Below, piece by piece: positions 1,832 to 60,130 of a stretch of DNA of 64,000 bases. The stretch comes from Dehalococcoidia bacterium (lineage in GTDB: Bacteria > Chloroflexota > Dehalococcoidia > Lucifugimonadales > UBA3495), in NCBI GenBank assembly GCA_965221385.1, contig OZ244885.1:1718757-1782756 (forward strand), given 5' to 3'. Position 1 is the stretch's first letter; each line of letters opens with the position of its first letter. The notes beneath the pieces were generated by a model, which saw only the letters and a program-made list of their open reading frames with translations, did not search any database and had not been told where the DNA came from. Both the position numbers and the translations under genes were made by a program.

Positions 1832-1884
1832 TGAAATTTCCCCCTTGACGGCTGGGATTGCACATATATAGCGTAAACATTGTC
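1832..1884 (+). promoter_or_regulatory. Promoter/operator motif copy 1, upstream of the terminase-portal module
   Basis: TTGACG (1845-1850), 18 bp spacer containing GGATTGCAC, TAGCGT (1869-1874); 37/53 ungapped identity to 53521-53573. Confidence 0.75.
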
Positions 1885-1919
1885 AGACCGGCCCGGGACA
1901 TGGGTCGGTCTTTCCTTTC
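1885..1919 (+). terminator. Leader hairpin plus pyrimidine tract (attenuator-like)
   Basis: AGACCGGCCC-gggacat-GGGTCGGTCT stem (one G-U pair) followed by TTCCTTTC, immediately after the promoter motif. Confidence 0.55.
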
Positions 1920-1962
1920 GGGCAAACACCCATCTCTCACCAATTTCCTGGAGGTTCACCCA

Positions 1963-2190
1963 TTGCAATGTCGCCGTTGTAATTCCCCTCGACTGATCCG
2001 GCTCAAGGTCTTCCGCGCTGGTGACCATCTTGTTCTGCGCTGCCAGGAATGCGGGTGCCTGTTCAGCCCCGCCCAGCCGGCCGAGGCACCCATGCCTTCG
2101 CAGCCCGGTGGTTCCCATAATTCCAGGCTCCGGCGGGTGGAGCCACGTTCCGCCGGCGCGCAGAACCTACCCGCGCCCCAGGAGGCATAG
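1963..2190 (+). CDS. Small Zn-ribbon protein (two CxxC pairs), first gene of the packaging module
   Basis: GGAGG at 1950-1954 then TTG start; CRRC...CQEC; stop lies 6 bp before the terminase ATG. Confidence 0.6.
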   Translation: MQCRRCNSPRLIRLKVFRAGDHLVLRCQECGCLFSPAQPAEAPMPSQPGGSHNSRLRRVEPRSAGAQNLPAPQEA

Positions 2191-2196
2191 CAGCCA

Positions 2197-3684
2197 ATGG
2201 CAGGAAGACGACGAGCCGGACCGGCCGTTAGAGAAGTTGCGCAACCGGAAGGCAAGCCGGACCCCACAGCTATGCCCACCGGAGCAGGGGAGAGGGATAC
2301 AGCGGCCGCGCCGCTCCTGTCTCCCGTGGAGTTTGCGGAGAGTGTGCTGGGCGTCCGGTTGTGGGCCAAGCAGCAGGAGTTGCTATCCGCCCTGCCGGTA
2401 CATCGGAGGGTGGCGGTCAAGTCGGGAAACGGGTTGGGCAAGGGATTCAGCGCGGCGGTGGCCGTGCTGTGGTTCTTATACTGCCACAACCCGGCCATAG
2501 TGCTGAGCACCGCGCCCACCTTCCGGCAGGTGCGCCACATCCTCTGGCGGCAGATTCACAGCCTCTACCGCCGCGCGCCCCAGACCCTGGGCGGCAAGCT
2601 GCTGGACACCCGTTGGGAGCTGGCCGACGACCGCTACGCCATGGGGCTGTCCGCCGACACCGCCGACCAGTTCCAGGGATTTCACAGCCCCAACATGCTG
2701 GTGGTGGTGGACGAGGCCGAGGGGGTCAGCGACCTGATATACGAGGCCATCGAATCGGTGATGACCTCGGCGGAAACCCGGCTGCTGCTCATCGGCAACC
2801 CCACCACCGTGTCGGGGATGTTCCGTCGGGCCTTCCACGAGGAACGGGAAATCTACCATTGCATCACCATTTCGGCGTTGGACAGCCCCAACGTGGCAGC
2901 CGGACGGGTGGTGGTTCCCGGCCTGGCCACCGCCCGTTGGGTGGAGGAACGACGGCAAATCTGGGGCGAGGGGAATCCCCTGTTTCGCGCCCGGGTTTTG
3001 GGCGAGTTCCCGGACCAGGCGGAGGACAACCTCATCCGGCTTTCCGACGTGGAGGCGGCGGTGGAACGCTGGCGGGGCGCACAACCGGGCATGGGCGGCC
3101 TGGCGCAATCAGATTCAACGGCGGACACCCTGGAGGAACCGGACACCCTGGAGGAAGAGGTGGTGCTGGCGGTGGACGTGGCCCGCTTCGGCTCGGACCA
3201 CAGCGTCATTCTAAAGCGCCGGGGCAGTCGGGTGGAGGAAATACGCACCTTCAACGGCATGAACACCATGGAACTGGCCGGTTGGGTGGCCGCCGCCATA
3301 CGGGAATGCCAGCCCCTGCAGACCTGCGTGGACGAGGTGGGCGTGGGCGCCGGGGTCGTGGACCGGCTGCGGGAGCAGGGTTACGGTGTCCGAGGGGTCA
3401 ACGCGGCCCATGCCGCCCGCCAAAAGGAAACCTTCGCCAACCTGCGCGCCGAGGCCTATTGGCGCCTGCGGGAACTCTTCGTCGCCGGCAGCATCGCCAT
3501 CCCGCCCGACCAACGGCTGATGGGAGAACTGGCCTCGCTGCGGTACGGATTTGACAGCCAGGGCCGCATCCTGATGGAGAGCAAGGACGAAATGCGCAAG
3601 CGGGGCGTATCCTCGCCTGACCGGGCCGACGCCCTGATGTTGGCCTTTTCCTCGCCGTCGAGCCGGCCCCGGCTTTGGATCTAA
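2197..3684 (+). CDS. terL: Phage terminase large subunit
   Basis: Walker A VAVKSGNGLGKG, Walker B VVVDEAEG, LLIGNP coupling motif, RNase H-like nuclease LAVDVARFGSD ... SPDRADALMLAF. The start may be 2272. Confidence 0.92.
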   Translation: MAGRRRAGPAVREVAQPEGKPDPTAMPTGAGERDTAAAPLLSPVEFAESVLGVRLWAKQQELLSALPVHRRVAVKSGNGLGKGFSAAVAVLWFLYCHNPAIVLSTAPTFRQVRHILWRQIHSLYRRAPQTLGGKLLDTRWELADDRYAMGLSADTADQFQGFHSPNMLVVVDEAEGVSDLIYEAIESVMTSAETRLLLIGNPTTVSGMFRRAFHEEREIYHCITISALDSPNVAAGRVVVPGLATARWVEERRQIWGEGNPLFRARVLGEFPDQAEDNLIRLSDVEAAVERWRGAQPGMGGLAQSDSTADTLEEPDTLEEEVVLAVDVARFGSDHSVILKRRGSRVEEIRTFNGMNTMELAGWVAAAIRECQPLQTCVDEVGVGAGVVDRLREQGYGVRGVNAAHAARQKETFANLRAEAYWRLRELFVAGSIAIPPDQRLMGELASLRYGFDSQGRILMESKDEMRKRGVSSPDRADALMLAFSSPSSRPRLWI

Positions 3685-3818
3685 CGGGGGTTCATCCCCG
3701 CTCGTGGGTCCGCCGGCCATGCCGAAGGCACCAACCCAGAACATACAGGTCATTATGCCGAACCCGAACCAACCTATCCTGGCAATCTACTCTTCCACAC
3801 GAAAGGAGGACTTCTGCA

Positions 3819-5132
3819 ATGAACTTTGGAGTTACCACCTGGCCCGAAAAACTGGCAGCCCTGGCGGGACTGGTCAGACCCGTTCGCCCCGGGCCGGCGA
3901 GCGCCGAACGCAACGCCGCCGCCAGCCAGGTTCGCCGGGGCCGGCGGGCCGTTGGCGCTGGCCTGGATCCCCTGGCGGAGACTTTCGGCGCCGGTTCCGG
4001 CTGGGCCCGGCCCGAATACGGGGCCTACTACACATCATCGGCGCCGGTGTACGCCGCCATCAAGCTGCGGGCCGATGCGGTTAGCCGACCCGCGGTGCGT
4101 CTCTACCGCCAGAACCCCGACGGTTCCCGCACACCCGTGCCCGCCAGTCATCCCGTCAACCAATTGCTGGAGCAGGTCAACCCGTGGCATACCCGGGGCG
4201 ACCTGTGGCAGGCCACGGAAATATACCTGAATCTGTGGGGGCAGGCCTTCTGGGCATTGGAACGAGACGAGGAGGGTCGGCGGGAAATCTGGCCCTTGCG
4301 ACCGGACCGGGTAACCGTCCTGCCCGACCGCATGAACCACGTGCGGGGTTTCGTTTACCGCAGCCGGGGCGGCGCGCCGGTGGCCTACACCGCCGAGGAG
4401 GTGGTCTGGCTGCGCTACTTCAATCCTCTGGAGGAGTTCGCCGGCCTTTCACCCCTGGCGCCAGCCCGAATGTCGGTGGAGATGGGCGGCGACGGTCTGC
4501 GGTTCAACCGCAATTTCCTGCGGAACTCGGCCCAGCCCGATTTCGTGCTGCTGACCGACGCCCAGCTTACCGATTCGGAGATCGAGGAATTCTACGAACG
4601 TTGGGAGGCCCGGTACCAGGGGCCGCAGAATGCCCGCCGCCCGGCCATCGCCAACTTTATCAAGGACATCCGCACCCTGGGGATGAGCCATAGAGACATG
4701 GACTTCATCCGGGGGCTGCGCTGGAGCCTGGAGGAGGTGAGCCGGGCCTTTGGGGTGCCGAAGCCCCTGCTGGCCGACCTGGAGCGGGCCACCTTCGCCA
4801 ACATCAACGCCGCCGAGCGAATCTTCTGGCGAAACACCATTGTGCCGGAGCTGCGCTTCCTGGAGGAACACCTGAACCGGATGCTGCTGCCCCGGCTGGG
4901 CTACCCGGATTTGGTCCTGGAGTTCGACCTGAGCACCATCGAGGCGATGAAGGAGGATGAGGACCACCGGGTGGCGCGCCAAGTACAGTTGTTGGACCGG
5001 GGGGTGCTGACCGTCAACGAGGTACGCCGGGAACACAACCTGCCCGAGGTGCCCTGGGGCGACGAGCCGGGGCGACGATTCGGCAAGAATCAGGAGACGC
5101 TCTCCCACCTGCCGACGCAGGGAGATACATAG
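3819..5132 (+). CDS. HK97-family phage portal protein
   Basis: AAAGGAGG RBS before ATG 3819; motifs LWGQAFW, WPLRPDRV, NPLEEFAGLSPL, RAFGVPKPLL, ATFANI, LTVNEVRR; directly follows terL. Confidence 0.92.
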   Translation: MNFGVTTWPEKLAALAGLVRPVRPGPASAERNAAASQVRRGRRAVGAGLDPLAETFGAGSGWARPEYGAYYTSSAPVYAAIKLRADAVSRPAVRLYRQNPDGSRTPVPASHPVNQLLEQVNPWHTRGDLWQATEIYLNLWGQAFWALERDEEGRREIWPLRPDRVTVLPDRMNHVRGFVYRSRGGAPVAYTAEEVVWLRYFNPLEEFAGLSPLAPARMSVEMGGDGLRFNRNFLRNSAQPDFVLLTDAQLTDSEIEEFYERWEARYQGPQNARRPAIANFIKDIRTLGMSHRDMDFIRGLRWSLEEVSRAFGVPKPLLADLERATFANINAAERIFWRNTIVPELRFLEEHLNRMLLPRLGYPDLVLEFDLSTIEAMKEDEDHRVARQVQLLDRGVLTVNEVRREHNLPEVPWGDEPGRRFGKNQETLSHLPTQGDT

Positions 5133-5139: not shown

Positions 5140-5175
5140 ATATACATTGACTAATGTATATAATCCTCACATAAT
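5140..5175 (+). promoter_or_regulatory. Sigma70-like promoter overlapped by a perfect palindromic operator
   Basis: ATATACATT-gact-AATGTATAT (5140-5161) overlaps TTGACT (5147-5152); CATAAT at 5170-5175 with a 17 bp spacer; upstream of padR. Confidence 0.7.
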
Positions 5176-5367
5176 AATAGAAGGAGGTTTGAGAGTTGAA
5201 CGCACCGGCCGGCGGGTGGAACCGGCCGGGAAGTCGAATGGCTGGGTCCGTCCTTCAAGAATCTTCCATAATCAAGGACCACGCCGGGGCAGCAAAGGGC
5301 AAACGGAGGCAGAGGCCTTTGGAAGCGGTTCCCAACGCCGGCGGGGCCCTCAAGGGAAAGAGAAATT

Positions 5368-6882: not shown

Positions 6883-7992
6883 ATGCCTGACCACCGGGAA
6901 TTGGCCCTGGATAATCTGGCTCGGCTGGGCGCCCAGCCGGCTACTTCCTTCCTTGAGGACGGCGTGGCCGGGGTGGTGCGCCAGGCCCTGGACGCGGCCC
7001 ACGTCCCCCACCGTACCGACGACTACGGCAACATCATCGCCCACCTGCGGGGAAGCGGCGCCGAAGGTTCCGTACCTCCCATCGCATTCATGGCCCACAT
7101 GGACCATCCCGGGTTCGAGGCCGTGGCCCTGGAAGGCGATTTCCTGGTTGGCGTGGCCATGGGCGGCGTACCCCAGTCCTCCTTCGAGGCCGGCGTTCCG
7201 GTGCGGGTAATCCTGCCCAACGGAGAGCGGCTCGCCGCCATCACCGCCGGGCCCAACGGCGAACCCTCAGAACGTCGGACCCTGATCCGCCTGGAGGACG
7301 CCTCGCGCCTGGCCGAGGTTTCCCTGCCGGCGTCGGTGGTGTTCGACCTGGTGGATTTTGAACTGGACGAGGGTTACATACGGATGCGGGCCGTGGACGA
7401 CCTGGCCGGCTGTGGCAGTACCCTAACCGTGCTGTCGGTTCTTGTTGGCGAGCAACCGGCCGGGGATGTGTACGGCGTGTTCACCCGGGCCGAGGAGGTG
7501 GGATTGGTTGGCGCCCGCCTGCTGGCCGAGGCGGGAACGCTGCCCAGGGAAACGTTGGTGGTGTCGCTGGAATCCAGCCGCACCCTGCCCGGGGCGGAAA
7601 TCGGCGGCGGCCCGGTCATCCGGGTGGGCGACGCCGGATTCACCTTCAACGCCGATGCGGAGACGGCCCTAATTCGCGCCCGGGAGACCCTGCAGGCCCG
7701 CCCGGAGGGGTTCCGCGTCCAGCGCCAGTTGATGAGCGGCGGCACCTGCGAGGCCAGCGCCTTCTCGGTATATGGGTACCGCACCACCGGCATTGCCTTT
7801 CCCCTGGGCAACTACCACAACGCCGCCCCTGAGGGCCGCATTGAGGCGGAATACATCCACGAGGAGGACTACCTGGGCGGTGTGGACCTGATGCTGGAGG
7901 CCGTCCGCCAAATGCCGGAGCGGGAGGACACGGCCTTCCGCCGCCGCCTGCGGGAAATACCGGGGGAGTTTCGGGAGAGAATGGTGGGGTAG
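6883..7992 (+). CDS. M20/M42 family metallo-aminopeptidase
   Basis: AHMDH, AVDDLAG, RAEEVG, GGTCE and NYHN metal ligands. Confidence 0.85.
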   Translation: MPDHRELALDNLARLGAQPATSFLEDGVAGVVRQALDAAHVPHRTDDYGNIIAHLRGSGAEGSVPPIAFMAHMDHPGFEAVALEGDFLVGVAMGGVPQSSFEAGVPVRVILPNGERLAAITAGPNGEPSERRTLIRLEDASRLAEVSLPASVVFDLVDFELDEGYIRMRAVDDLAGCGSTLTVLSVLVGEQPAGDVYGVFTRAEEVGLVGARLLAEAGTLPRETLVVSLESSRTLPGAEIGGGPVIRVGDAGFTFNADAETALIRARETLQARPEGFRVQRQLMSGGTCEASAFSVYGYRTTGIAFPLGNYHNAAPEGRIEAEYIHEEDYLGGVDLMLEAVRQMPEREDTAFRRRLREIPGEFRERMVG

Positions 7993-13575: not shown

Positions 13576-13872
13576 GGCGCAATTGCTCCCGGGTTGGAGT
13601 TGGAATACGGCTTGGCGAGGAAGCCATGCAAGGCTGTCGATGCCGGAACCAATGATACAGGATGGCGGGGCAACTGCAACACCGGGCCCGGTCTTCCCTG
13701 AGGACAATACGATGGCAATGGACTCCGGGGCTATTGAGGCTGGCGCCCCGCAACCTGTCCAGGTTTGTACCTGGTTGACCCCATAAACTATAATTGTCGG
13801 AACCCTTCACCCTGCGGCGGAAGACGTTTCAGCCCTCAGCCAGGACTACTGCCGCATTCCCAGGATGTGTTC

Positions 13873-14673: not shown

Positions 14674-14674
14674 G

Positions 14675-15994: not shown

Positions 15995-16562
15995 GGTTAC
16001 CCTGTTCGGGGAGGACTACGGCCACGAGAGGGTCATTGGGGCGCTGATAGGAGGAATTGCCGCTGAATTCGGTATTGAAGCTCAGCTCAATTGGCGAAGC
16101 GCGGTCCAGGGTCACGGAAGGGTGGTTAGGGAGCTTCGCAGGTACTTGGAGGAACTGGAGGAGAACGCAGGTCCATATCCGGACCTCCTGGTTGTCGCGA
16201 CCGATGCAAACTGCCTTGGAGCGAATGAACGCAGGCGAGAGTTCCAGATTTTCAATCCACCTCGCCCGCTAATCCTGGCAACCCCGGACCCGCACGTAGA
16301 ACGTTGGTTACTGTTGGACGGTGCAGCCTTCAACCAGGTATTTGGCCGAGGCTGCCAAGCGCCAACCTACAAATGTGGGCGCGACGAATACAAGAGGCTC
16401 CTGATAGAGAGTATTCGGGAGACGGGAGTCAGGCCGGAGCTTGGGGGTATTGAGTTTGCCGCCGACTTGGTTCAGGCCATGGATATTGACCGCGCGGCGC
16501 GGGCCGACCCTTCACTGCAAGCCTTCGTCAACGACCTGAGGTCCTTTTTCTCCAATCCATAA
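15987..16562 (+). CDS. DUF4276-like (TOPRIM-type) partner of the ATPase
   Basis: Overlaps the ATPase stop; LFGED, VVATDAN, PHVERWLLLD, DPSLQAF pattern. Confidence 0.6.
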   Translation: MVEVTLFGEDYGHERVIGALIGGIAAEFGIEAQLNWRSAVQGHGRVVRELRRYLEELEENAGPYPDLLVVATDANCLGANERRREFQIFNPPRPLILATPDPHVERWLLLDGAAFNQVFGRGCQAPTYKCGRDEYKRLLIESIRETGVRPELGGIEFAADLVQAMDIDRAARADPSLQAFVNDLRSFFSNP

Positions 16563-21347: not shown

Positions 21348-21358
21348 GAAGGCTACCC

Positions 21359-49691: not shown

Positions 49692-49970
49692 GTGATCCAG
49701 TCTTTCAAACATCGGGACCTAGAGTCACTTTACGACGGGCGAGGAGGTCGAAGAGTCGCTCCGGAGCATGTCGGAAAGCTGACCCGCATCCTCGCGACGC
49801 TGGACCGGAGCAGCAAGCCCCAGGACATGGACCTGCCGGGGTTTCGGCTGCACCCCCTAGCCGGCCAACTCACTGGCCACTACGCTGTTTCCGTGTCAGG
49901 AAACTGGCGGATAACCTTCAGATTCGAGGACGGCCACGCAGTCGATGTCGATTACACGGATTACCACTGA
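49692..49970 (+). CDS. higB: HigB-family toxin
   Basis: IQSFKHRDL..PGFRLHPL..SVSGNWRITF..DYH. Confidence 0.92.
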   Translation: MIQSFKHRDLESLYDGRGGRRVAPEHVGKLTRILATLDRSSKPQDMDLPGFRLHPLAGQLTGHYAVSVSGNWRITFRFEDGHAVDVDYTDYH

Positions 49971-49982
49971 GGAGGAAAACCC

Positions 49983-50276
49983 ATGCCGATGCAGAACCCT
50001 CCCCATCCGGGCGAGATCGTCCGTTACGAGTGCCTGGAGCCTCTGGGACTGACCGTAACCCGCGCCGCCCAGGGCTTGGGGGTAACCCGTCAGGCCCTGT
50101 CGGACCTGGTGAACGGGAAGGCCGGCGTATCGGTGGAGATGTCCATCCGCCTTTCCCGAGCCTTCGGCTCCACGCCGGAGACCTGGCTGGGGATGCAGAC
50201 AGCCTACGACCTGTGGCAGATACAGGAACGGGCCGAGCAAATTGAGGTGGAGGACCTCACCGCTGCTTCACGGTAG
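49983..50276 (+). CDS. higA: HigA antitoxin
   Basis: NPPHPGE..LTVTRAA..GVTRQALS..STPETWLGMQ. Confidence 0.92.
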   Translation: MPMQNPPHPGEIVRYECLEPLGLTVTRAAQGLGVTRQALSDLVNGKAGVSVEMSIRLSRAFGSTPETWLGMQTAYDLWQIQERAEQIEVEDLTAASR

Positions 50277-50579
50277 CCAGCGATATTGGCCCGCGCTCCA
50301 ACCCGTTTCAAATTCCAGAGGGGCCAAGTTTAGCGTGGTTGGCCGGTCTGGTGGCTTCTGCGACTCTTCCCCGGCCACTTCTTTCTGCGGACCGGGTTTC
50401 CCTGGCCGCTCGACCTGACAACGTTGATTTGAGCAGGTACGGGAACCAGGGCAGTTAAAGCCAGGGGCGGATCTGTTACGACCCGCCCCCTTCTGCTATT
50501 TAAGTCTTCCTGAGTTGTACCGCCCGGGGGCGCCGCAGCGCTTCCCTTCCACGGGACCCATGGACCGGCGCCGGCGTTC

Positions 50580-52850
50580 CTACTGGTGGAACAGGTTCAG
50601 GGCCGAACCCAGCTTGAACCAGGCCAGTTGCGATTCGCTGTAGGAATGGTTCAGCAGCAGGGTTTCGCTGGAACCGTCGCTGTGCTGCACCCGGCATTCC
50701 ACGGGCTTGCCGGGGGCCAGATCGTTCAGACCCACCAGGCTCAGGCGGTCATCCTCCCGAATCCGGTCGTAATCAGCCGGGTCGGGGAAGGTGAGGGCCA
50801 ACAGGCCCTGCTTCTTCAGGTTGCTCTCGTGGATACGGGCAAAGCTGCGGACGATAACGGCCGCGCCGCCCAGCAGACGGGGCGACAGGGCGGCATGCTC
50901 GCGGCTGCTGCCCTCGCCGTAGTTGGAATCGCCCACCACCACCCACTTGATGCCCTGGGCCTGGTAGTCCCGGGCGATGCGGGAGAAGCCCACACCCTCT
51001 TCGCCCGTCACCACGTTCTTGCCCTTGCCGGCCTCGCCGGTGTAGGCATTGATTGCGCCCATGAACATGTTATCGCTGAACCGGTCCAGGTGACCCCGGA
51101 ACCGCAGCCAAACGCCGGCGGGGGAGATGGAGTCGGTGGTGGTCTTGCCCTGGGCTTTCACCAGCACGGGCATATCCACGAAGTCACCGCCGTCCCAAGG
51201 CGACCAGGGGCTGAGCAACTGGATGCGCTCGCTGTCTGGGGCCACGGTCAGTTCAATATCGGTGCCGTTGTCGGGCGGATCCTCATAGGAGGAGGAACCC
51301 CGGTCGAAGTCCTGGGGGGGAACATCGGCGGCAGGCTTGGGCGGCTCCAGCTTGAACTCCTGACCATCGGCGCCCACCAGGGTATCGGTGAGGGGATTGA
51401 AGGAAAGCCGTCCGGCCAGGGCCAGGGCTGTGACAATCTCCGGGCTGCCGATGATGTTCATGGTGGAGGCCTCCCCGTCGTTGCGGGCGGGGAAGTTCCG
51501 GTTGTAGGAGGTTACGATGGTATTGGGCCGTCCCACCGGGTCGCCCACCCTGCGCCACTGGCCGATGCAGGGGCCGCAGGCGTTGGCCAGCACGGTGGCG
51601 TTGATGTCCTGGAGGGACTTCATCTGCCCGTCCCGCTCGATGGTGGCCCGCACCTGCTCCGAACCGGGGGTAACCATGAAGGGCACCGCCGCCGTGAGGC
51701 CGTGGGCCCGGGCCTGCTCCGCCACGTCGGCGGAACGGCTCATGTCCTCGTAAGACGAGTTGGTGCAGCTGCCGATGAGGGCCGAGGATATTTCGTCCAC
51801 CAGGCCGCTGTCCTCTCGCAGTTCCTGAACCATGCGGGAGATGGGGCGGGCCCGGTCGGGCGAGTGGGGGCCTACCAGGTGCGGTTCCAGTTCCGAGAGG
51901 TTAATCTCCACCACCTGGTCGTAGTACTGGGACGGATTCTCATAGACTTCGGGGTCGGCGGCCAGCAGGTGCCGGTACTGCTCCGCCAGCTCCACCAGTT
52001 CACCCCGGTTGGTGGCCCGGAGGTAGCGGGCCATGGATTCATCGTAGGGGAAGGTGGACGAGGTGGCGCCCAGTTCCGCCCCCATGTTGCAGATGGTGCC
52101 CTTGCCCGTGGCGCTGATGGTGGAGGCGCCGGGGCCAAAGTACTCGATAATGCAGTTGGTGCCGCCGGAAACGGTAAGCACCCCGGCCAGGTACAGGATA
52201 ATGTCCTTCGGGGCGGTCCAGCCGCCCAGTTCACCGGTCAGGTGGACGCCAATGAAGCGGGGGTACAGAACCTCCCAGGGCAGACCGGCCATGACCTCCA
52301 CGGCATCGGCGCCACCCACGCCCACGGAAATGGAGCCGAGGCCCCCGCCGTTGGGGGTATGGGAGTCGGTGCCGAGCATCAGCTGGGCCGGGTAGGCATA
52401 GTTTTCCAGAGCCACCTGGTGGATTATCCCGGCGCCGGGACCCCAGAATCCGACGCCGTACTTGGCGGCGGCGGTGCGCAGGAAGTCATAGACCTCGCTG
52501 TTCTCGCCCAACGATTCCTGCAAGTCCTGGGCGCCCTCCACCCGGGCCTGGATCAGGTGGTCGCAGTGGACCGAGGTGGGAACGGCGGTGCTGCTGCGGA
52601 GGGTCTGCATGAACTGGAGCATGGCCGTCTGCCCCAGCACGTCCTGGAGGATGACCCGGTCCGGTCGAAGCTGGATGTAGGTCTCACCCCGCACCATATC
52701 CGTTTCGGCGGGGTTGTCCAGGTGGGAGAGGAGGATCTTGTCGGCCAGGGTCAGGGGCCGGTTCTGGAACTGCCGGACGGTGCGCAGGTTCCGGTCCAGC
52801 CTTTGATAGACTTCGGAAACCAACTCCCGAGTGGGTGCAATCGTAGGCAT
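50580..52850 (-). CDS. acnA: Aconitate hydratase (mitochondrial-like type)
   Basis: VHCDH, GIIHQ, DSHT, GSCTNSSYED, ACGPCIGQW, SYNRNF, GSSREHAA. Confidence 0.95.
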   Translation of the reverse strand: MPTIAPTRELVSEVYQRLDRNLRTVRQFQNRPLTLADKILLSHLDNPAETDMVRGETYIQLRPDRVILQDVLGQTAMLQFMQTLRSSTAVPTSVHCDHLIQARVEGAQDLQESLGENSEVYDFLRTAAAKYGVGFWGPGAGIIHQVALENYAYPAQLMLGTDSHTPNGGGLGSISVGVGGADAVEVMAGLPWEVLYPRFIGVHLTGELGGWTAPKDIILYLAGVLTVSGGTNCIIEYFGPGASTISATGKGTICNMGAELGATSSTFPYDESMARYLRATNRGELVELAEQYRHLLAADPEVYENPSQYYDQVVEINLSELEPHLVGPHSPDRARPISRMVQELREDSGLVDEISSALIGSCTNSSYEDMSRSADVAEQARAHGLTAAVPFMVTPGSEQVRATIERDGQMKSLQDINATVLANACGPCIGQWRRVGDPVGRPNTIVTSYNRNFPARNDGEASTMNIIGSPEIVTALALAGRLSFNPLTDTLVGADGQEFKLEPPKPAADVPPQDFDRGSSSYEDPPDNGTDIELTVAPDSERIQLLSPWSPWDGGDFVDMPVLVKAQGKTTTDSISPAGVWLRFRGHLDRFSDNMFMGAINAYTGEAGKGKNVVTGEEGVGFSRIARDYQAQGIKWVVVGDSNYGEGSSREHAALSPRLLGGAAVIVRSFARIHESNLKKQGLLALTFPDPADYDRIREDDRLSLVGLNDLAPGKPVECRVQHSDGSSETLLLNHSYSESQLAWFKLGSALNLFHQ

Positions 52851-53058
52851 AACAGTTTCTCCATGCTCGATTCGTTATTGGTCTGCCCCATTTCGCCCCG
52901 GCTGGGGCAGGGAATGGGGGAAGGGACAATGGCGGTAGTCTAGGATTATAAGCCCCCCCTGTCAATTGGGCTGCATAACAAAACCTCCCCGGGGCCGCCG
53001 GTGGTTGCCGAACCGGCGCAGAGGAGGTTTTGGCTGCCGTCCTGGGGCGGGAACCCGG

Positions 53059-53328
53059 CTACTTGCGCTTGAGGGCGTTGGGGTCGGTGTTCTTGAAGTA
53101 GTCGTAGTTCTTGGCGATGTAGCTCTCCCATTCCGGGGGAACGGCATCTTCCGCGAATATGGCGGTTACAGGACACACCGGCTCGCAGGCGGCGCAGTCA
53201 ATGCACTCGTCCGGGCTGATGTAGTACATATCGTCATCATCGGTGGTGTAGATGCAGTCAACCGGGCAGACATCCACGCAGGCGGCATCCTTCACACCAA
53301 CACAGGGTTCGGTAATTATGTAGGCCAT
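53059..53328 (-). CDS. fdxA: 7Fe/8Fe ferredoxin
   Basis: CVDVCPVDCI and CIDCAACEPVCPV. Confidence 0.93.
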   Translation of the reverse strand: MAYIITEPCVGVKDAACVDVCPVDCIYTTDDDDMYYISPDECIDCAACEPVCPVTAIFAEDAVPPEWESYIAKNYDYFKNTDPNALKRK

Positions 53329-53520
53329 TCTCTCTCTTGCTCCTCTGAACTAGCTCTTCTTGAGTCTCCCGGCCCCGGGCGGCCATGGTCAACCGACCGT
53401 TCAGCTCCCGCCCTATGGGAAGCCAACGAAATTATAGCATAGCCCGGCGGCTTTGCAATATTGGGGTGACGGCTCACAAAGGGCAAGAACCCGGCAAAGC
53501 TCCGGGGAATTTGTCGGACA

Positions 53521-53573
53521 TGACAGTTCCCTGTTGACACGCAGGATTGCACGTCTCTAGCCTGAATAGTGTC
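53521..53573 (+). promoter_or_regulatory. Promoter/operator motif copy 2, upstream of the head-tail module
   Basis: TTGACA (53534-53539), 18 bp spacer with GGATTGCAC, TAGCCT (53558-53563); matches 1832-1884. Confidence 0.75.
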
Positions 53574-53659
53574 GGGTGGGAACGGTCTGCCGGTTTCCCT
53601 GACCGTAGCGCCGGAAGCCAATCGAATATCGCGGCCTCGGAACGCCGCAATGCACGCGA

Positions 53660-53690
53660 GGGACTGACCTTTGTGGGTCGGTCCCTTTTT
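53660..53690 (+). terminator. Intrinsic terminator in the 5' leader of the head-tail operon
   Basis: GGGACTGACC-tttgtg-GGTCGGTCCC-TTTTT. Confidence 0.7.
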
Positions 53691-53809
53691 GTCGTTTCCG
53701 TGGATTCCAGGGTTTATGTGGTTAACGGGGTTTCCGGGGCTTCCGGGCCCGCACGCCACCGGCGTCCACACTGCCGGCCATGCCCCGGCATACATAAGGA
53801 GGTGAAGAA

Positions 53810-54559
53810 TTGACGATGATTCCCCCGGATGGCGATTACGGGACGGCGGATAGGGACCTGCTCCTGGAGTCGCTGGAGCGATACCGGCGGGGCCTGGCCG
53901 ACGCTCCCCTGCTGCGGAAATGGAGCATGGCAAGAGCGCCCGGCGGGGAGTTGACGGCAGTGGACCATCCCGTCTCACCCCAGGGCGCGGAAGAAGCGGA
54001 GGAAACGGCAATACTGGGAGGAATCGAAGGGACTGCGGCGAAGGAAGCGGAATCCGGCTTCCCGATGACCTTCGTGATTTCCAACGAGGAGGTGGACCGC
54101 CATGGCGACGTGGTGCTGGCCCGGGGCTGGCGACTCCAGGCCTACCTGAGCAACCCCGTGTTTCTCTGGGCCCACGACTACGGCCGGCCCGCCATCGGTC
54201 GCTCCCTGGCGGTTTGGACGGAACGGGCGCAATTAATGGCCCGCATGGAGTTCGCGCCCACCGCCTTCGCCCGCGAGGTGGCCGCCCTGTATCGCACCGG
54301 CTACCAGCAGGCGGTGTCGGTGGGCTTCAGGCCCCTGCGCTACGAGGAACGGCGCGACGAACGTACCGGCGCCTTCCTGGGCATCCGTTTCCTGGAGCAG
54401 GAACTGTTGGAGGTGAGCGCCGTCCCGGTGCCGGCCAATCGCCATGCCCTGCGCCGGGGGCTGGAAAAGGGGGAGTCCCCAGGGCCGGCGCCGGAAGTCC
54501 CCCTGCCCTTAGACCCCTTGAGGGAAGTGCTGGCGGCGCTGCGGTCCGCCGCCCGGTAA
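53810..54559 (+). CDS. HK97-family prohead protease
   Basis: VDRHGDVV, NPVFLWAHD..PAIG, VSVGF, LLEVSAVPVPAN; AAGGAGG RBS. Confidence 0.92.
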   Translation: MTMIPPDGDYGTADRDLLLESLERYRRGLADAPLLRKWSMARAPGGELTAVDHPVSPQGAEEAEETAILGGIEGTAAKEAESGFPMTFVISNEEVDRHGDVVLARGWRLQAYLSNPVFLWAHDYGRPAIGRSLAVWTERAQLMARMEFAPTAFAREVAALYRTGYQQAVSVGFRPLRYEERRDERTGAFLGIRFLEQELLEVSAVPVPANRHALRRGLEKGESPGPAPEVPLPLDPLREVLAALRSAAR

Positions 54560-54671
54560 TGGGCCTGCCCTTCCCCTGCGTCCGTCCCGCGCCCGGCCAG
54601 CGCAGCCATTCCCAGAGGAATAAATCCGGACAGCCCAAGAGACAACCAGCAGACGACTAGAGGAGGAACTT

Positions 54672-56003
54672 ATGACCCTGGCAACTCACGATATTGAACT
54701 GATCAAGCGGGAGGTGGCTGGTATTCGGGACTTCTACCAGTCCCGGATGGACGCCGAACTGCCGCCCCTGCAGGAGGAGGTGGGACGCATCGCCGCCCAG
54801 TTGGGACAGGTACAGGAACAGTGGCGGGACGGGGAGCGGCGGGCCCTTCTCTCCAGGTACGGCGGCGACGACCGGCCCCGGGTAACCCACGGCAAGTACC
54901 GGGGCATGGATGCCCTGTCGCTGGCCTACGTGCGCAGTGTGCTGAACGCTCAACTGCGGGAGCCGGCCGGCCTGAATCAACGCGCCCTGGAGGAATGGCA
55001 GAACAATCTGAAGGCCGCCATGGACAGCGCCACCGCCGGCTCCGGCGATGAGCTGGTGTCCACCGCCGAGGCCTCCGCCCTGTGGAGCGACGTGAACCTG
55101 GAGACCCTGATTGCGCCCCTCTTCTCGCGGGTGGACATGCCCACCAACCCCTTCGAGATTCCCCTGCAACTGGGCGGCGTCAACTGGTATCCGGGGAGCG
55201 AGAACACGGCGGTCACCGGCTCCGCTCCCGCCACCACCCGCCAGACCCTCACCGCCCACGAGCTGGTGGCCGAGGTTCCCTGGTCGCTGACCCTGGACGA
55301 GGATGCCGTCATCGCCATGGCCGAGGAGGTGCGCAGCTCCCTGGTGCGGAACGCGGTGGAGGTGATCGACGACGTGCTGCTGAACGCCGATGCCACCGCC
55401 GCCAACAACATCAACGCCGATGGGGCCACCATCAGCGCAACCACGGCCAGGAAGGGACACCTGCTCCTCGGCTTCGACGGCCTGCTGCACCTTCCCCTGG
55501 TGGACAACACCACCCAGGCCAACAACCACAACGCCGCGGTCAGCGATGGCATGTTCAACGAGATTCGCGGCAAGCTGGGCAAGTACGGCGTCCGGCCCTC
55601 GGAACTGGCCTACATCATGGACGTGAACACCTACATCAAGTCCCTGACCGTGGCCAACTTCCGCACCCTGGACAAGCTGGGCGGAAACGCCACCCTGCTG
55701 CGGGGTCAACTGGGCGCGGTGGAGGGCATACCCGTCATCGTCTCGGAGCAGATGGCCACCGCCGATACCGACGGCAAGGTCACCAATGACGGCACCGCCA
55801 ACACCAAGGGCCGTCTCCTCATCACCAATCGCACCCAATGGCGGCTGGGGTACCGGCGGGAGCTGCTCATCGAGACCACCCGCGACATCCAGAAACGGCA
55901 GAACATCATGGTGGTGAGCATGCGGCTGGCCTTCATGGAGCGCACGGGCAGCCGCTCCACCGCCACTCATACCGCCCTGCAGTACAACATCACGGGCGTC
56001 TAA
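54672..56003 (+). CDS. HK97-fold major capsid protein
   Basis: Follows the protease; GAGGAGG RBS; helical N-terminal delta-like region, GDELV, LLNAD..GFDGLL, GAVEGIPVIVSEQM. Confidence 0.85.
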   Translation: MTLATHDIELIKREVAGIRDFYQSRMDAELPPLQEEVGRIAAQLGQVQEQWRDGERRALLSRYGGDDRPRVTHGKYRGMDALSLAYVRSVLNAQLREPAGLNQRALEEWQNNLKAAMDSATAGSGDELVSTAEASALWSDVNLETLIAPLFSRVDMPTNPFEIPLQLGGVNWYPGSENTAVTGSAPATTRQTLTAHELVAEVPWSLTLDEDAVIAMAEEVRSSLVRNAVEVIDDVLLNADATAANNINADGATISATTARKGHLLLGFDGLLHLPLVDNTTQANNHNAAVSDGMFNEIRGKLGKYGVRPSELAYIMDVNTYIKSLTVANFRTLDKLGGNATLLRGQLGAVEGIPVIVSEQMATADTDGKVTNDGTANTKGRLLITNRTQWRLGYRRELLIETTRDIQKRQNIMVVSMRLAFMERTGSRSTATHTALQYNITGV

Positions 56004-56106
56004 CCTCCAGCCTCTCACCCGCCCTTTCCAACCCTGTCATGGACCCAGGTAGGGGCGGGGTGAGAGCCAACTTTTCAGGAGACCACGTTCCAGGAGACAA
56101 CCGACC

Positions 56107-56952
56107 ATGACCAATGCCTATTGCGACCTGGCAACCCTCAAATCCGCCGGCGCCCTCAACATCACCGGGGGCCTGTACGACCGCCGCCTGCTGGCCCTGC
56201 TGGAGGAGGCGTCGCGGGTAATCGACGGTTTCTGCAACCGCCACTTCTACCTCCTGCACACCACCCGCCGGTTCGAGACGGCCCCCTGGACGGGCCCGGT
56301 TCAACAACTGCTGGTGCCAGACCTGGCCCGGGCCGACACCGTCCGGGCGGCGAGCGTCCCGTCCGGACCAGCGCCGGAGGAACCCGACTGGCAGTCCATC
56401 GCCCATACCCTCTGTCCCCTGGACGCCGCGCCGGACCGTCACTGGGGGCGTCCCTACACCCGCATAACCCTGGGCCCCCTGACCGGTCCGGCGGCGCGCC
56501 GGGGCGGCCCAACCCTGATCCAGGTGGCCGGTCGCTGGGGATACCGGGAGGTGACCGAGGACACGGGCTGCACCCTTTCGGCCCCGGCCACTGCCACCGC
56601 CACCCGGTTGAGCGTATCCGGAGGCGGCGGCCTGTCCCCGGGCCAAACCCTGGTACTGGGGGATGAGCAACTGTACGTTCACGCGGTGGATGGCACGCAG
56701 GGATCGGTGGAACGGGGCATCAACGGTTCCACCGCAGCCGCCCACGAAAGCGGCACGGCCGTACACCTGCGGGGCTACCCGGGCCCGGTGACCGAGGCCT
56801 GCCTGCTGCTGGCGTCCGAACTGTGGCACGGGCGCCATCCGGCTGCGGTGGCCTCCGAACCCGGGCCGGCCCGTTCCGGGGCGCCGCCGCCTTCGGGGTT
56901 GGGCCGCGAGGTGGAAGCCCTGCTCTCCTCCTACCGCAAGCTCGCCCTCTGA
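56107..56952 (+). CDS. Head-tail connector/adaptor (gp6/gp15-like) with inserted beta domain
   Basis: AYCDLATLK..LLEEASRVIDGFCNRHF..GRWGY..PVTEACLLLASEL..LLSSYRK. Confidence 0.75.
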   Translation: MTNAYCDLATLKSAGALNITGGLYDRRLLALLEEASRVIDGFCNRHFYLLHTTRRFETAPWTGPVQQLLVPDLARADTVRAASVPSGPAPEEPDWQSIAHTLCPLDAAPDRHWGRPYTRITLGPLTGPAARRGGPTLIQVAGRWGYREVTEDTGCTLSAPATATATRLSVSGGGGLSPGQTLVLGDEQLYVHAVDGTQGSVERGINGSTAAAHESGTAVHLRGYPGPVTEACLLLASELWHGRHPAAVASEPGPARSGAPPPSGLGREVEALLSSYRKLAL

Positions 56953-57013
56953 AAGGCTCTGGGACTTGACGACGATCCGCCGGCGCGCGCCCGGCTGAGA
57001 AGGGAGGAAAAGT

Positions 57014-57433
57014 ATGACCCTGGTTGCCGCAACAAAGGACTTGGCGGAGCGGCTGGCGACGCTGCCCGGACTGCGGGTGTACACCACCCCGCCCGATGGG
57101 GCGCCGGAACTGCCCTGCGCCATTATCCAGCCGGGTCAGCCCCTGGCCGAGTACGACGGCACCCTGGCCGGCCGGGACGTAACCTACAACTTCGCCGTCC
57201 TGCTCCTGACCCGCTCGGGCCACGAGGGGCAGGCCTGGGAGGAGGTGGCCAGTTACGTTGCCCCAACCGGGTCGGCTTCCTTCAAGGCGGCGGTGGAAGC
57301 CCGGCCAGCCCAACCGGGCGGAACGGTGGACTGGTTCCGTACCCTGCGGGCCAGCGATGGAGGCCGGGTGTCCTACCGCAAGGCCGCCTACTGGGGCCTA
57401 ACCTTCCAGGTCCAGGCCTACGTTGGCGGCTAG
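57014..57433 (+). CDS. Putative tail completion/terminator protein
   Basis: 139 aa, GLRVY..P..LPCAII..F.V pattern; positioned between adaptor and tube genes. Confidence 0.6.
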   Translation: MTLVAATKDLAERLATLPGLRVYTTPPDGAPELPCAIIQPGQPLAEYDGTLAGRDVTYNFAVLLLTRSGHEGQAWEEVASYVAPTGSASFKAAVEARPAQPGGTVDWFRTLRASDGGRVSYRKAAYWGLTFQVQAYVGG

Positions 57434-57538
57434 GGGCAAGGGGCCCTCGTTCCCGGCTCAGGCCCCGGGTTTAAGCCGGCAGGGCTGGAGACGAGGCGTT
57501 AACCAAGACCCATCCAACCCCAATTCAGGAGGAACGCC

Positions 57539-57982
57539 ATGGCCAAGGTTCCAGTTTCCGGGCGCAGCTACATCGAGGTTGACGATGCCGGCGGGGTGGC
57601 CCGCGACCTCTCCCCTTCGGTGGCGGAGGTGGAACCCATCGGCATGCAGGTGACGGCCCTGGACGTGACCGCCCTGAACGACCGGTCGCGGCAGGTTTCC
57701 GCCGGGCCGGAGCCGGCGCAGCAGTTCACCCTGCACGGCCTGTTCGACGATACGCCGGTCACGGGTTCCGACGCGGTCCTGTCCGGCATCGTGGGCAGGG
57801 TGGTCACCGTCAGCTACGGCCCAGCCGGCAAGGGAACCGGTCAGCGCAAGGTAACGGGCCAATTCCTTTGCACTAGCTACCAGGTGGGCGGCCGGGCCGA
57901 GGGCGCCAGGAACGCCGGCCTGGTGCGCTTCGTCGCCCGGTTCCAGCAGTCGGGGTCGGTAACCCTCACCACATGGGCCTAG
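57539..57982 (+). CDS. Putative tail tube (major tail) protein
   Basis: 147 aa; DLS..LDVTALND..FTLHGLFD..YGPAG..G; AGGAGG RBS; gene position. Confidence 0.65.
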   Translation: MAKVPVSGRSYIEVDDAGGVARDLSPSVAEVEPIGMQVTALDVTALNDRSRQVSAGPEPAQQFTLHGLFDDTPVTGSDAVLSGIVGRVVTVSYGPAGKGTGQRKVTGQFLCTSYQVGGRAEGARNAGLVRFVARFQQSGSVTLTTWA

Positions 57983-58081
57983 GGGCAAGTCCCCGCGCCG
58001 CGCCACTGCCATGGGGGCCACAAAACTGTTCGAGACCCCGGATATTCATCCAAGATATTCATCATCGGAGGCAACGTTGAA

Positions 58082-60130
58082 ATGGCAAATCCCCACTGGC
58101 GGATATGGGTGGACTGGAACGACAACGGGGCCTGGGGCGAAAGCTCCCAAGATTATCGCGAAGACATAACCCCGGACGTGCTGGACCTGTCCTGGAGGTG
58201 GGGTATGCCCGTGGACTGCTCCCGCAACCGCCGCTGGCCGGCCCCGGCCCGCCTGTCGCTGACCCTGCGCAACGGCGGGATGACCTACACTCCGGGCAGT
58301 GCCCTTTCCCCCTTGTCCGGCAAGCTGGCGGTGGGGCGCCGGGTCTGGGCCGCCTTTGCCTATCCCTACGATGATTTTGCGCCGGAGGCCGGCGACGCCG
58401 ACGGAACCGACCTGGCCGGCCGTCTCCCGTCCCTGGGCGACGGCTATCAGTGGACCAAACGCACCACCGGGGCCGCCGGCATAACCCTCTCCCAGGGTCG
58501 GGCGAGGCCCGCCACCGGTTGGGGAGGCGCCATCTACACCCTGGATCTGGGGGACCCGGACGCCCACATTGGCTTCATCTACCGGCGCACCGGGAACGGG
58601 GTGGGCGGCGCGGCCCTGCGGGTGCAGAACCAGTGGGACTACCTGCGCCTGCGGTTCGGGGCCACCGCCACCCTGCTGGAGGATGTTACCTTCGGCTACC
58701 CGTCCATCCTGCGACGGGGCGACCCCCTGTTGGCGGGACGAGACTACTTCATAGAGATTGAACAGCACGGCGGCTCGGTGCGCGTATTCGCCACCGACCT
58801 GGCGGGCAACACCGCCGACCGCAAGACCATTCTGGGAGGCGTGTCCACCGCCGGCAACCGGACGGCCACCAGCCACGGTCTTTGGCACGACGGTACCGCC
58901 AATGCGGCCGCCGAGCGGTGGGCCGAATTCGGCGGCTGGCGCAGTTTCTTCTACGGCTCTCTGACCCACATCTCCCCGGAGCGAGATGGGGCCCTGGGTC
59001 AGGTGTGCCGCTGCCAGGCGCGGGACGACCTCCACCAGCTGGAGCAGATGCCCCTCTTCCACCTGGTAAGCGGAAGGCTCAAGACTTCGGCATCCATCGC
59101 CAACGACATACTCACCTGGTCGGGGTTCAGCCCCAGCCACCGCCGCCTGGACCGGGGCCGGACCCTGGTGGCCACCGAACCCCGGGCCCTGTGGCGAATC
59201 TCCGCCCGGTCGGCCCTGAACTCCCTGGCCGATGAGGAGGACGGGCGCATCTACGTGGACGGCCGGGGCTACCTGCGGCTGGAGTCCGCCGGCCACCGGC
59301 AGGCCGGGGCCCACACCGCCGCTCGCGCCACGCTGCGGGATACCGGAACCGGCGGGCCCAGTTTCGCCGCCCTGGACTGGAATGATGGCAGCGATGCAGT
59401 GGAGAATTCGGTGGCCTTCCGCTATCGGCTGGCGGAGAACCAGGGTACCCAGGAGATTTGGCGCCTGCGGGACGTGGCGGTCATACCCGCCGGCGAAAGC
59501 AGGGACTTCCTGGCCGAGAGCGTCGCCTACGACATGGTAGATTCCTTCATCCTTCCGTTGGCCACCACGGACTACGCCGCCAACTCCCGCGCCGACGGGG
59601 CCGGCGAAGACCTGAAGGCCAGCATTACCGTCAGCCTGCCCCACGCTGCCGCCGGCGCCCCGACCAACCCGTCGGGCCGCTACCGGGGCCGGGGGACGGT
59701 GGTGAGAGTGGCCAACAATCATGCCACGGCCACCGCCTACCTGACCCTGCTGCGGCTGCGGGCCCATCGTACCCACCAGGCGCCGGAGCCGACCAGCTTA
59801 TGGGCCGACAACGCCGCCAGCCAGACTGCCCACGGATTGCGGGATTCTACGGTGGAATGCCGGTTCATAGATCACTACGAGGCGGCCCGGGCCGGCGCCC
59901 AGAGCCGTCTGGCGCGGCGGGGACTGCCCCGACCCCGATTAACCCTGGCCATCGCCGCCGGCAGTGGCGACAACCTGGCGCAGATGGTTAATCGCACCCT
60001 GTCGGACCGGGTGAAGGTGGTGAGCAGCAACCCGACAATCAACGGAGACTTCTACATCGAGGGCATGGAACTGATCGCAAACCCCCGCACCGGGGAACTG
60101 ACTGCCCGTTGGCGGGTGGAAGGGGCCTAG
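58082..60130 (+). CDS. Putative tail-tip/hub (minor tail) protein
   Basis: WVDWNDNG..EDIT.DV, LSLTLRN, FFYG, EDGRIYVDGRG.LR, LSDRVKV..FYIEG resemble Siphoviridae minor tail proteins; last gene of the module. Confidence 0.6.
   Translation: MANPHWRIWVDWNDNGAWGESSQDYREDITPDVLDLSWRWGMPVDCSRNRRWPAPARLSLTLRNGGMTYTPGSALSPLSGKLAVGRRVWAAFAYPYDDFAPEAGDADGTDLAGRLPSLGDGYQWTKRTTGAAGITLSQGRARPATGWGGAIYTLDLGDPDAHIGFIYRRTGNGVGGAALRVQNQWDYLRLRFGATATLLEDVTFGYPSILRRGDPLLAGRDYFIEIEQHGGSVRVFATDLAGNTADRKTILGGVSTAGNRTATSHGLWHDGTANAAAERWAEFGGWRSFFYGSLTHISPERDGALGQVCRCQARDDLHQLEQMPLFHLVSGRLKTSASIANDILTWSGFSPSHRRLDRGRTLVATEPRALWRISARSALNSLADEEDGRIYVDGRGYLRLESAGHRQAGAHTAARATLRDTGTGGPSFAALDWNDGSDAVENSVAFRYRLAENQGTQEIWRLRDVAVIPAGESRDFLAESVAYDMVDSFILPLATTDYAANSRADGAGEDLKASITVSLPHAAAGAPTNPSGRYRGRGTVVRVANNHATATAYLTLLRLRAHRTHQAPEPTSLWADNAASQTAHGLRDSTVECRFIDHYEAARAGAQSRLARRGLPRPRLTLAIAAGSGDNLAQMVNRTLSDRVKVVSSNPTINGDFYIEGMELIANPRTGELTARWRVEGA

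Follow-up and report, generated by a model that had tools for sequence, protein, structure and literature searches.

A split set of phage-type virion genes as a candidate gene transfer agent, vertically inherited in SAR202-type Dehalococcoidia

Can a set of phage-type virion genes that lies in two widely separated operons of a bacterial chromosome be a gene transfer agent (GTA), or is it kept for some other host function, or is it the remnant of a dead prophage? The question is raised by a stretch of 64,000 nucleotides (the window, whose first letter is position 1 in the coordinates below) from a Dehalococcoidia bacterium (GenBank assembly GCA_965221385.1, contig OZ244885.1; G000:C1:1718757-1782756 in our numbering), the genome of which (G000) is a single contig of 2.9 Mb with 61% GC. 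The window holds nine intact phage-type genes in two operons separated by 49 kb, namely a packaging operon (1963-5132) with a small Zn-ribbon gene, the large terminase (TerL) gene and the portal gene, and a head-tail operon (53810-60130) with the genes of a prohead protease, an HK97-type capsid, an adaptor, a tail terminator, a tube protein and a lectin-bearing tail hub. The answer that we favour, with modest confidence, is that this domesticated, phage-derived gene set is a candidate GTA (a viriform) which is vertically inherited in SAR202-type Dehalococcoidia. A first-pass annotation of the window had already called the set GTA-like, and the label can be retained in the form of a candidate GTA.

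According to sections 2 and 4 of a 2024 review (PMC11841831), GTAs are known from experiment in few lineages, i.e. the Alphaproteobacteria (the RcGTA type and that of Bartonella), Brachyspira, Desulfovibrio and Methanococcus, and it is difficult to distinguish new examples from dead prophages. In the same sections GTAs are described as typically encoded at multiple loci, devoid of replication genes and vertically inherited, and their TerS (the small terminase) as either lacking a DNA-binding domain or not being known at all. Viruses are reported to have been detected in SAR202 genomes (eLife 2015), and a paper in which both GTAs and SAR202 are mentioned deals with an RcGTA gp10 domain in small proteins. 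No report of a GTA in SAR202 or Chloroflexota, nor any account of the present element, was found in the literature searched, which was covered in part by titles and the beginnings of abstracts, and by main texts rather than supplements.

The first-pass annotation had described a split virion gene set with mostly clear ribosome-binding sites (RBSs) among ordinary host genes, and this description is borne out. All of the genes that it named are present and intact, a GGAG-type RBS is found at all nine starts, and the neighbours of the modules are host genes for a MobA-like protein, PadR and an AAA_33 kinase on the one hand, and for a ferredoxin and an Lrp/AsnC regulator on the other. The first gene of the packaging operon (1963..2190, + strand, as are all module features given below) encodes a 75-aa Zn-ribbon protein with four cysteines, starts with TTG behind the RBS GGAGG and occupies the usual position of TerS. 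The protein matches no Pfam or NCBIfam family; its gene is found 5' of terL in 28/30 named loci, with the four cysteines invariant and a conserved F-S-P motif. In one related locus (L042, 8208-9797) the Zn-ribbon frame continues into TerL as one open frame, which is either a fusion or a sequencing frameshift. The TerL gene (2197..3684, 495 aa) matches phrog_2 (E 2e-36) and, weakly, Terminase_6C; Walker A/B and nuclease acidic motifs are visible in its translation, and in a profile search its nuclease C-terminus resembles chains labelled 'Gene 2 protein' and large terminase (E 5e-9). The portal gene (3819..5132, 437 aa) matches PF04860 (E 3.5e-71) and TIGR01537 (E 4e-44), and because of its RBS (AAGGAGG) and the starts seen in relatives, the ATG at 3819 is most likely its start, rather than position 3675, to which the open frame extends back. 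The packaging module as first annotated therefore stands for TerL and the portal and changes at the portal start, while the region 1832-2190 also holds a promoter-like element, a hairpin and the Zn-ribbon gene.

The head-tail operon opens with the gene of the prohead (head maturation) serine protease (53810..54559, 249 aa, TTG start), which matches PF04586 (E 1.4e-8), phrog_80 (E 2e-17), phrog_617 (E 2e-22) and, under that model's cut-off, TIGR01543 (E 7e-9). It is followed by the HK97-fold major capsid gene (54672..56003, 443 aa; PF05065, and TIGR01554 at E 7e-15). The Pfam Phage_capsid match begins at residue 135 of the capsid protein and is preceded by an N-terminal extension of ~110-130 aa, which we infer to be delta-domain-like; the nearest solved chains, labelled major head or capsid proteins, are 8ho3, 8zvi and 5tjt (E 1e-12 to 1e-16). 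The product of the head-tail adaptor gene (56107..56952) matches phrog_442 (E 2e-7), the adaptor part being its N-terminal ~150 aa, and its C-terminal extension bears a weak likeness to tail or fibre segments (phrog_1101 and phrog_9851, E ~1e-3, residues 152-220). The next gene (57014..57433, 139 aa), which had been taken for a completion gene, is instead that of the tail terminator (phrog_17840, E 2e-19, full length), and the major tail (tube) protein gene (57539..57982, 147 aa) matches phrog_10528 over its full length (E 2.4e-11).

The last gene of the operon (58082..60130) encodes a protein of 682 aa for which the Pfam, PHROG and NCBIfam scans gave no family match. An AlphaFold2 model built from 10 homologues has a predicted local distance difference test (pLDDT) score of 62.6, being usable for residues 1-400 and poor for residues 404-615. 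When this model was compared with the PDB by Foldseek, the carbohydrate-binding module CBM66 (4b1m, E 4e-6), the tail or hub proteins 3d37, 3cdd, 1k28_D and 6v8i_AE, and VgrG chains were matched; against BFVD the best match had E 1e-36 and a TM score of 0.63, ConA-like phage proteins were also matched, and the nearest Atlas clusters are viral. The protein is thus predicted to have a gp27/gpD/VgrG-like hub fold with an inserted CBM66/ConA-like lectin domain, that is, it is probably the hub or tip protein of the tail and has a domain that probably binds glycans, and the model makes it the likely receptor-binding part of the particle.

How does this gene set sit in its host genome? There is a single portal and a single capsid gene genome-wide, and tyrosine recombinases number just two, at 0.013 and 0.95 Mb, both more than 750 kb from the window at 1.72-1.78 Mb. 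About 45 ORFs (open reading frames) are called between the modules, and the 30 that were scanned are metabolic, regulatory or defence-like; the intervening host genes include those for aconitase, quinol NO reductase (qNOR), a P450, thiolase, dehydrogenases, a hybrid kinase-regulator and a few defence-like proteins. Neither an integrase nor a transposase is found in these 30 ORFs, and no att-like direct repeats flank the modules beyond chance-like imperfect matches, in agreement with what had been seen at first. An intact prophage would form one block with integrase, repressor, replication and lysis genes and att sites; no such block was found, and host genes separate the modules. The GC content of the modules (0.66 and 0.68) is somewhat higher than that of the genome (0.614).

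The distribution of the set was followed in a panel of 40 relatives, comprising 16 species of the genus, 24 genomes of the family in all, and 16 from other families of the order. A portal was found in 28/40 relatives (genus 16/16, family 22/24, other families 6/16), a capsid in 26/40 (15/16, 21/24 and 5/16, respectively) and the hub in 21/40 (15/16, 18/24 and 3/16, respectively), with a completeness of 83% for the genus genome in which no capsid was found. The two head genes, portal and capsid, occur together in 26 of these genomes, the portal alone in two, the capsid alone in none and neither in 12. From the letters alone the host had been judged to be a probable Dehalococcoidia/SAR202 member, and this is borne out, as the named portal-bearing relatives are Dehalococcoidia or Chloroflexota metagenome-assembled genomes (MAGs), one genus member being titled 'SAR202 cluster bacterium'. 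In a class-wide sample of 400 other genomes a capsid relative (E 1e-20 or better) is present in 15: eight belong to two further families of the same order, with three genera fully covered among the sampled species (3/3, 2/2 and 3/3), six to a single family of a different order (~50% identity), and the remaining match is weak. The genomes of the order that are listed without a capsid relative are mostly small (1.2-2.1 Mb). In one relative the same distant portal (41% identity) lies at both ends of a contig in opposite orientation (G036:C3:394-1575 and 49789-50970), which could reflect either an inverted terminal duplication or the misassembly of a separate phage-like element.

The separation of the two operons is likewise shared among relatives. 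TerL adjoins the portal in 29/30 named loci, with mobA upstream in 10/30 and padR downstream in 14/30, and the order protease-capsid-adaptor-terminator-tube-hub is kept beside a divergent sbp5 gene in 7/7 genus capsid loci fetched; in G000 the head-tail module is inverted relative to sbp5. Protease and capsid lie within 10 kb of the portal in one named locus only, that of a more distant relative (65% portal identity). Where portal and capsid share a contig, the distance between them is 51 kb (G000), 70 kb (G014), 110 kb (G017), 152 kb (G012), 204 kb (G001), 273 kb (G013), 358 kb (G008), 615 kb (G021), 1.6 Mb (G019) or 25 kb (G022), so that the range in the family is 25 kb to 1.6 Mb; in two other families they are 10-16 kb apart and divergent, in two further families 3-4 kb apart and contiguous, and in G035 portal, capsid and hub lie at three separate loci. 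By these separations across relatives the split is old, both halves having been retained through many rearrangements. As to the assembly itself, contigs of the run X1 cover 50126-55155 and 55133-63953 with zero differences and span both host junctions of the head-tail module; X1 is possibly the source sample, and the stronger argument against misassembly is the occurrence of the same flanks in many independent assemblies. A second run, X2, reaches parts of the window at a depth of ~2 and is left out of the evidence. In many genus members (L015-L028) an additional membrane protein (~330-360 aa) is encoded between portal and padR; it is a paralogue of the membrane protein after padR, and both are absent from G000.

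Are the genes maintained by selection and passed on with the host? Median dN/dS values (ratios of nonsynonymous to synonymous substitution rates, NG86, against G000) are 0.20 for terL, 0.18 for the portal, 0.36 for the protease, 0.20 for the capsid, 0.48 for the adaptor, 0.37 for the terminator, 0.25 for the tube, 0.38 for the hub and ~0.32 for the Zn-ribbon gene (5 comparisons), compared to 0.06-0.38 for the flanking host genes, and are only rough figures, since dS is 0.7-1.3 and thus near NG86 saturation. By these ratios the gene set is under purifying selection. Within the genus the mean identity to G000 is 90.7% for the capsid (89-93% across the genus), 89.1% for an RpoB fragment and 81.7% for the portal; the capsid is thus conserved as well as RpoB. 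Trees were inferred by a quick LG+G4 analysis from the 27 genomes having RpoB (the one fragment), portal and capsid, with G015 (no capsid) and G036 excluded. The patristic distances in these 27 genomes are highly correlated (Spearman 0.93 for RpoB-portal, 0.90 for RpoB-capsid and 0.92 for capsid-portal, reached in 0/2000 Mantel permutations), and within the genus alone the correlations are 0.53, 0.67 and 0.47, respectively (reached in <=2/2000 permutations). The trees of RpoB and portal share 14/24 bipartitions, and those of RpoB and capsid, as well as of capsid and portal, share 8/24, against at most 3 shared bipartitions in 2000 label permutations. Wide conservation, fixed host-gene neighbourhoods, gene trees congruent with that of the host and dN/dS well below 1 had been named in the first-pass annotation as the support to be looked for, and each of them is found, the ratios lying in the range of the flanking host genes. 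Domestication of the gene set together with vertical inheritance with the host is, in our judgement, very probable.

Besides their history, the two operons share what appears to be a control region. A promoter-like element precedes the packaging operon (1845..1874), consisting of TTGAC, an 18-nt spacer containing GGATTGCAC and the -10-like hexamer TAGCGT, and a second one precedes the head-tail operon (53534..53563), with TTGAC, an 18-nt spacer containing GGATTGCAC and the -10-like hexamer TAGCCT. The pattern TTGAC-N5-GGATTGCAC has exactly two sites in the 2.9-Mb genome, one before each operon, with no more at one mismatch and 15 genome sites at two mismatches (8 for the reversed control); TTGAC-N18-TAGC[CG]T is likewise found genome-wide only at the two module sites. 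In relatives, the packaging-side element is kept 5' of the terL module in 19/27 genomes with at most three substitutions, and on the head-tail side TTGAC-N5-GGAAAACCC...TAGCC is found at the same place. A degenerate form of the motif hits only just 5' of the two modules in G008, G001 and G014, with two sites per genome, and has one site in G012 and one in G021 (the latter ~5 kb upstream of the portal), the reversed control giving 0. The spacer 9-mer is GGATTGCAC at both operons in G000, while the relatives (L015-L062) have GGATTGCCC on the packaging side and GGAAAACCC on the head side; the identity of the two unlinked G000 sites suggests that they changed in concert.

Behind either element lies a leader hairpin that resembles an intrinsic terminator. 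In the packaging operon it (1885..1921, or 1885-1911 in a narrower delimitation) has 11 pairs and a T-rich tail and lies ~11 nt past the -10-like hexamer, and in the head-tail operon (53658..53697, or 53658-53687) it has 13 pairs and a T-run, ~95 nt past the -10-like hexamer and ~110 nt short of the protease gene. The hairpins of both modules have the stem core GAC-N-GACC / GGTC-N-GTC in common, compensatory changes are seen in 2/11 pairs in an alignment of 24 sequences from both modules, and the head-tail hairpin is nearly invariant in 13 aligned leaders. The hairpins are not terminators of upstream genes, because those genes are divergent (the ferredoxin gene on the - strand at the head-tail operon of G000, and sbp5 in the relatives), and the called frame 'orf88' (53547-53813) is probably a non-coding leader. 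A riboswitch in the leaders was considered and rejected, as the best Rfam E values are 2-8 and, according to RNAalifold, no structure 5' of the hairpin is conserved among 13 head-operon leaders. When the entire genome was scanned with patterns for promoter, hairpin or the two combined, only the two module sites and a few unrelated hairpins came up, and hence no further regulon member. The roles of promoter and terminator are read from sequence only. On that footing the shared element and hairpin, conserved in relatives, support a co-regulation of the two operons, which had earlier been asserted without evidence; the operons are possibly controlled by antitermination, as an analogy with lambdoid phages would suggest, and the spacer palindrome could equally be a repressor operator. 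The Lrp gene next to the head-tail module is not syntenic in relatives. A near-consensus sigma-70 promoter (TTGACT, 17 nt, TATAAT) lies at 5140-5200, just past the portal stop and ahead of the padR region, and PadR thus appears to have its own promoter.

Taken together, these features would allow the following course of events. A host signal would act via a factor that recognises the shared promoter/spacer element and would let RNA polymerase read through the leader hairpins, the switch being either an antitermination or attenuation like that of lambdoid late genes, or the relief of a repressor bound to the palindrome, and both operons would then be expressed together. The capsid would assemble on the portal and be matured by the protease, and because the element is without a replication module, TerL would fill the heads with host chromosomal DNA by a headful mechanism. 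A short tail made of terminator, tube and hub would be added, and the particles would bind a glycan on recipient cells via the lectin domain of the hub. As the operons lie at least 49 kb apart, a capsid of ordinary size (capsid capacity not being readable from sequence) could not carry the whole element, which would therefore not spread as a virus. The specific reading as a DNA-packaging transfer particle, as far as the gene content suggests it, we hold with about even, at best slightly better than even, confidence. The fullest version, i.e. a functional GTA that arose independently in Chloroflexota, with nine genes, a tail without tape measure, two unlinked operons and a lambdoid-like switch through a private promoter and a leader terminator, and that moves host DNA between SAR202-type Dehalococcoidia cells, is put forward tentatively, with confidence a little short of even.

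Among the known systems, RcGTA resembles the SAR202 element in plan: both have HK97-type head, packaging and tail genes without replication or integration genes, are vertically inherited under purifying selection, occupy more than one locus and are too dispersed for self-packaging. In RcGTA the genes run from TerL through portal, protease, capsid, adaptor, terminator and tube to the hub, and the SAR202 element has them in the same order. On the other hand, the SAR202-type element is found in Chloroflexota, and the break in its core cluster falls between portal and protease; in contrast to RcGTA, it yielded no tape measure, Dit, chaperones, stopper, TerS, head spikes or fibres, a Zn-ribbon gene stands at the TerS position, and control apparently lies with the private promoter and the terminator-like hairpin in the leader. 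The NCBIfam search gave the generic models portal_HK97, major_cap_HK97 and proheadase_HK97 only and no GTA-specific model, with zero matches for adaptor, terminator, tube and hub, and no RcGTA entry is among the solved capsid matches listed. Judged by these searches, the element is not an RcGTA homologue.

Other systems resemble the element in part. BaGTA (Bartonella), VSH-1 (Brachyspira), Dd1 (Desulfovibrio) and VTA (Methanococcus voltae) are, according to the review (PMC11841831), independent domestications of different tailed phages. They are functional analogues that are genetically distinct from RcGTA, as the SAR202 element would be; they were found by experiment (particles with heterogeneous DNA) and none is from Chloroflexota, whereas the SAR202 element is known from its sequence alone. 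PBSX is similar in that chromosomal, non-replicating phage particle genes would package host DNA. The PBSX genes form a single uninterrupted block that includes a complete contractile tail and lysis genes, and PBSX kills rather than transfers, whereas the SAR202 element is split and has a minimal non-contractile tail set and no recognised lysis genes. Finally, lambdoid late genes are controlled by the PR' promoter, a Q-binding element and the tR' terminator, and the likeness is one of architecture only, i.e. a promoter with a conserved spacer element, then an intrinsic-terminator-like leader hairpin before the virion genes; no Q-like gene was identified in the SAR202 genome, in which the Q-antiterminator families were not searched genome-wide. 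A comparison with 50,697 phage records gave ~22% identity for the best capsid match and nothing for the hub. In IMG/VR, 61 contigs carry capsid relatives (42-83% identity); they are 4-19 kb long (one 32 kb), vary in gene order, and none is a complete phage.

Several observations weigh against the reading as a vertically inherited transfer particle. As to descent, apart from the roughness of the dN/dS values, adaptor (0.48) and hub (0.38) are under weaker constraint, the capsid tree has only 8/24 bipartitions in common with that of RpoB, and related genomes are not independent samples. Moreover, the capsid of G012 clusters with those of G008 and G005, while its RpoB and portal cluster with those of G014, a discordance that may reflect a head-module exchange between species. 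As to the particle, no tape measure was detected in a search of the genome with PF10145 (PhageMin_Tail), and no Dit, tail chaperones or head-completion/stopper protein were recognised among the module genes in the family scans. Nor do the module genes include a recognisable TerS, a holin or an endolysin, the TerS and lysis families not having been searched genome-wide; with this scope, the scan for tape-measure, TerS and lysis loci that had been proposed gave none. In a tblastn search (E 1e-5) with all ORFs called in nine related loci, contiguous clusters included, no further phage-like gene was found in the genome, and the extra ORFs of the related contiguous clusters, among them one of 1300 aa, have no homologue there; in the contiguous cluster of G025 merely two small ORFs lie between tube and hub. 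This gene set may thus not suffice for building and releasing a working tailed particle. As to integrity, a particle gene is disrupted in 3/16 genus species, each time as a single-species event: the capsid gene of G016 (L061 11798-13004) is interrupted by an ISAs1/IS4-like transposase gene, the protease gene of G012 (L047 5031-7455) by an IS21-like istA/istB pair, and the hub of G014 (L049 ~7560-7750) is broken into two frames. The hub was not found in 6/24 family genomes, nor in several other families that retain portal and capsid, and part of the clade may keep heads only, or may be losing the system.

The alternative that survives these data best, which we rate as unlikely and by no means negligible, is that the genes are domesticated and selected while the particle or head serves a host function other than gene transfer, e.g. 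as a PBSX-like killer particle, as an anti-phage defence that hijacks or poisons assembly, or as a delivery or storage compartment. All of the evidence for domestication applies to it equally, and the minimal tail set with no tape measure found, the lineages with portal and capsid in which the hub was not found, and the several defence-like genes between the modules fit it. However, in every lineage examined the capsid has remained accompanied by a portal and by an intact TerL that has its ATPase and nuclease motifs, which points to DNA packaging, the lectin-bearing hub points to the binding of other cells, and no killing or defence effector is recognised in either operon.

A cryptic prophage remnant, split by rearrangement and slowly decaying with no present function, is very unlikely. 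Virion and packaging genes by themselves do look like a defective prophage, the disrupted genes in 3/16 species and a transposase between portal and protease in G025 could be signs of decay, and the gene set shrinks or varies in other genera; but the set is present in 15-16/16 genus species and most of the family, the capsid is conserved like RpoB with dN/dS of 0.18-0.48 for the set, congruence with RpoB reaches to family and order depth, promoter and hairpin are conserved at both loci, and over such depth the frames would not have survived neutral decay. It is most improbable that the element is an active or inducible prophage, or that the 49-kb gap arose by misassembly or by a recent, private rearrangement of a single prophage, since the 61 IMG/VR contigs classed as viral that carry related capsids are short fragments rather than phage genomes, no close relative exists in the 50,697 phage records, no integrase, replication or lysogeny genes were found nearby, the X1 contigs span both host junctions of the head-tail module, and the identical split and host flanks recur in many independent assemblies, even though terL, portal, protease and capsid are contiguous in two other families. 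Even taken together, a dead remnant and an artefact are improbable. In every comparative test that separates a GTA from a dead prophage the locus came out on the side of a GTA, and the outcomes that had been named beforehand as refuting, i.e. an intact prophage context, clade-wide neutral decay or misassembly, were not seen.

What remains in favour is an independent, minimal candidate GTA whose two operons share a distinctive promoter-terminator signature, in a phylum from which no GTA is known. If the candidate is what it appears to be, an uncultured, environmentally widespread group of Dehalococcoidia would have its own route of gene exchange, and this GTA would be the first outside the lineages listed in the 2024 review (PMC11841831). 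It would also indicate how far a working head-tail particle can be reduced, and the host trigger of particle production could be sought in a defined regulon of two promoters. Furthermore, the private promoter and leader hairpin common to unlinked operons form a sequence signature that could be used to find other dispersed GTAs.

A few other loci in the window deserve mention. An AAA_21/AAA_15 ATPase gene (14675-15994) lies between two ORFs without family (13765-14673 and 15987-16562), and the three (13765-16562) form a candidate small defence cassette. A protein of 1038 aa (32791-35907) with a Swt1-like HEPN domain at its N-terminus and a MrfA Zn-binding domain at its C-terminus likewise has a defence-like look. 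At the right end of the window (63875-63970) the summed X1 contig depth is ~1600, compared to ~44 around it, with many small alternative joints; this is suggestive of a short repeat that occurs in many copies or is shared by many organisms, and it lies outside the finding. A D12 adenine methyltransferase gene (43962-44909) lies in a low-GC patch (0.54) that may be a small island, and the region 19717-24300, which has a tRNA-Ala gene (19717-19791) and then P450 and ABC-2 transporter genes in a stretch of lower GC (0.56-0.59), may be another.

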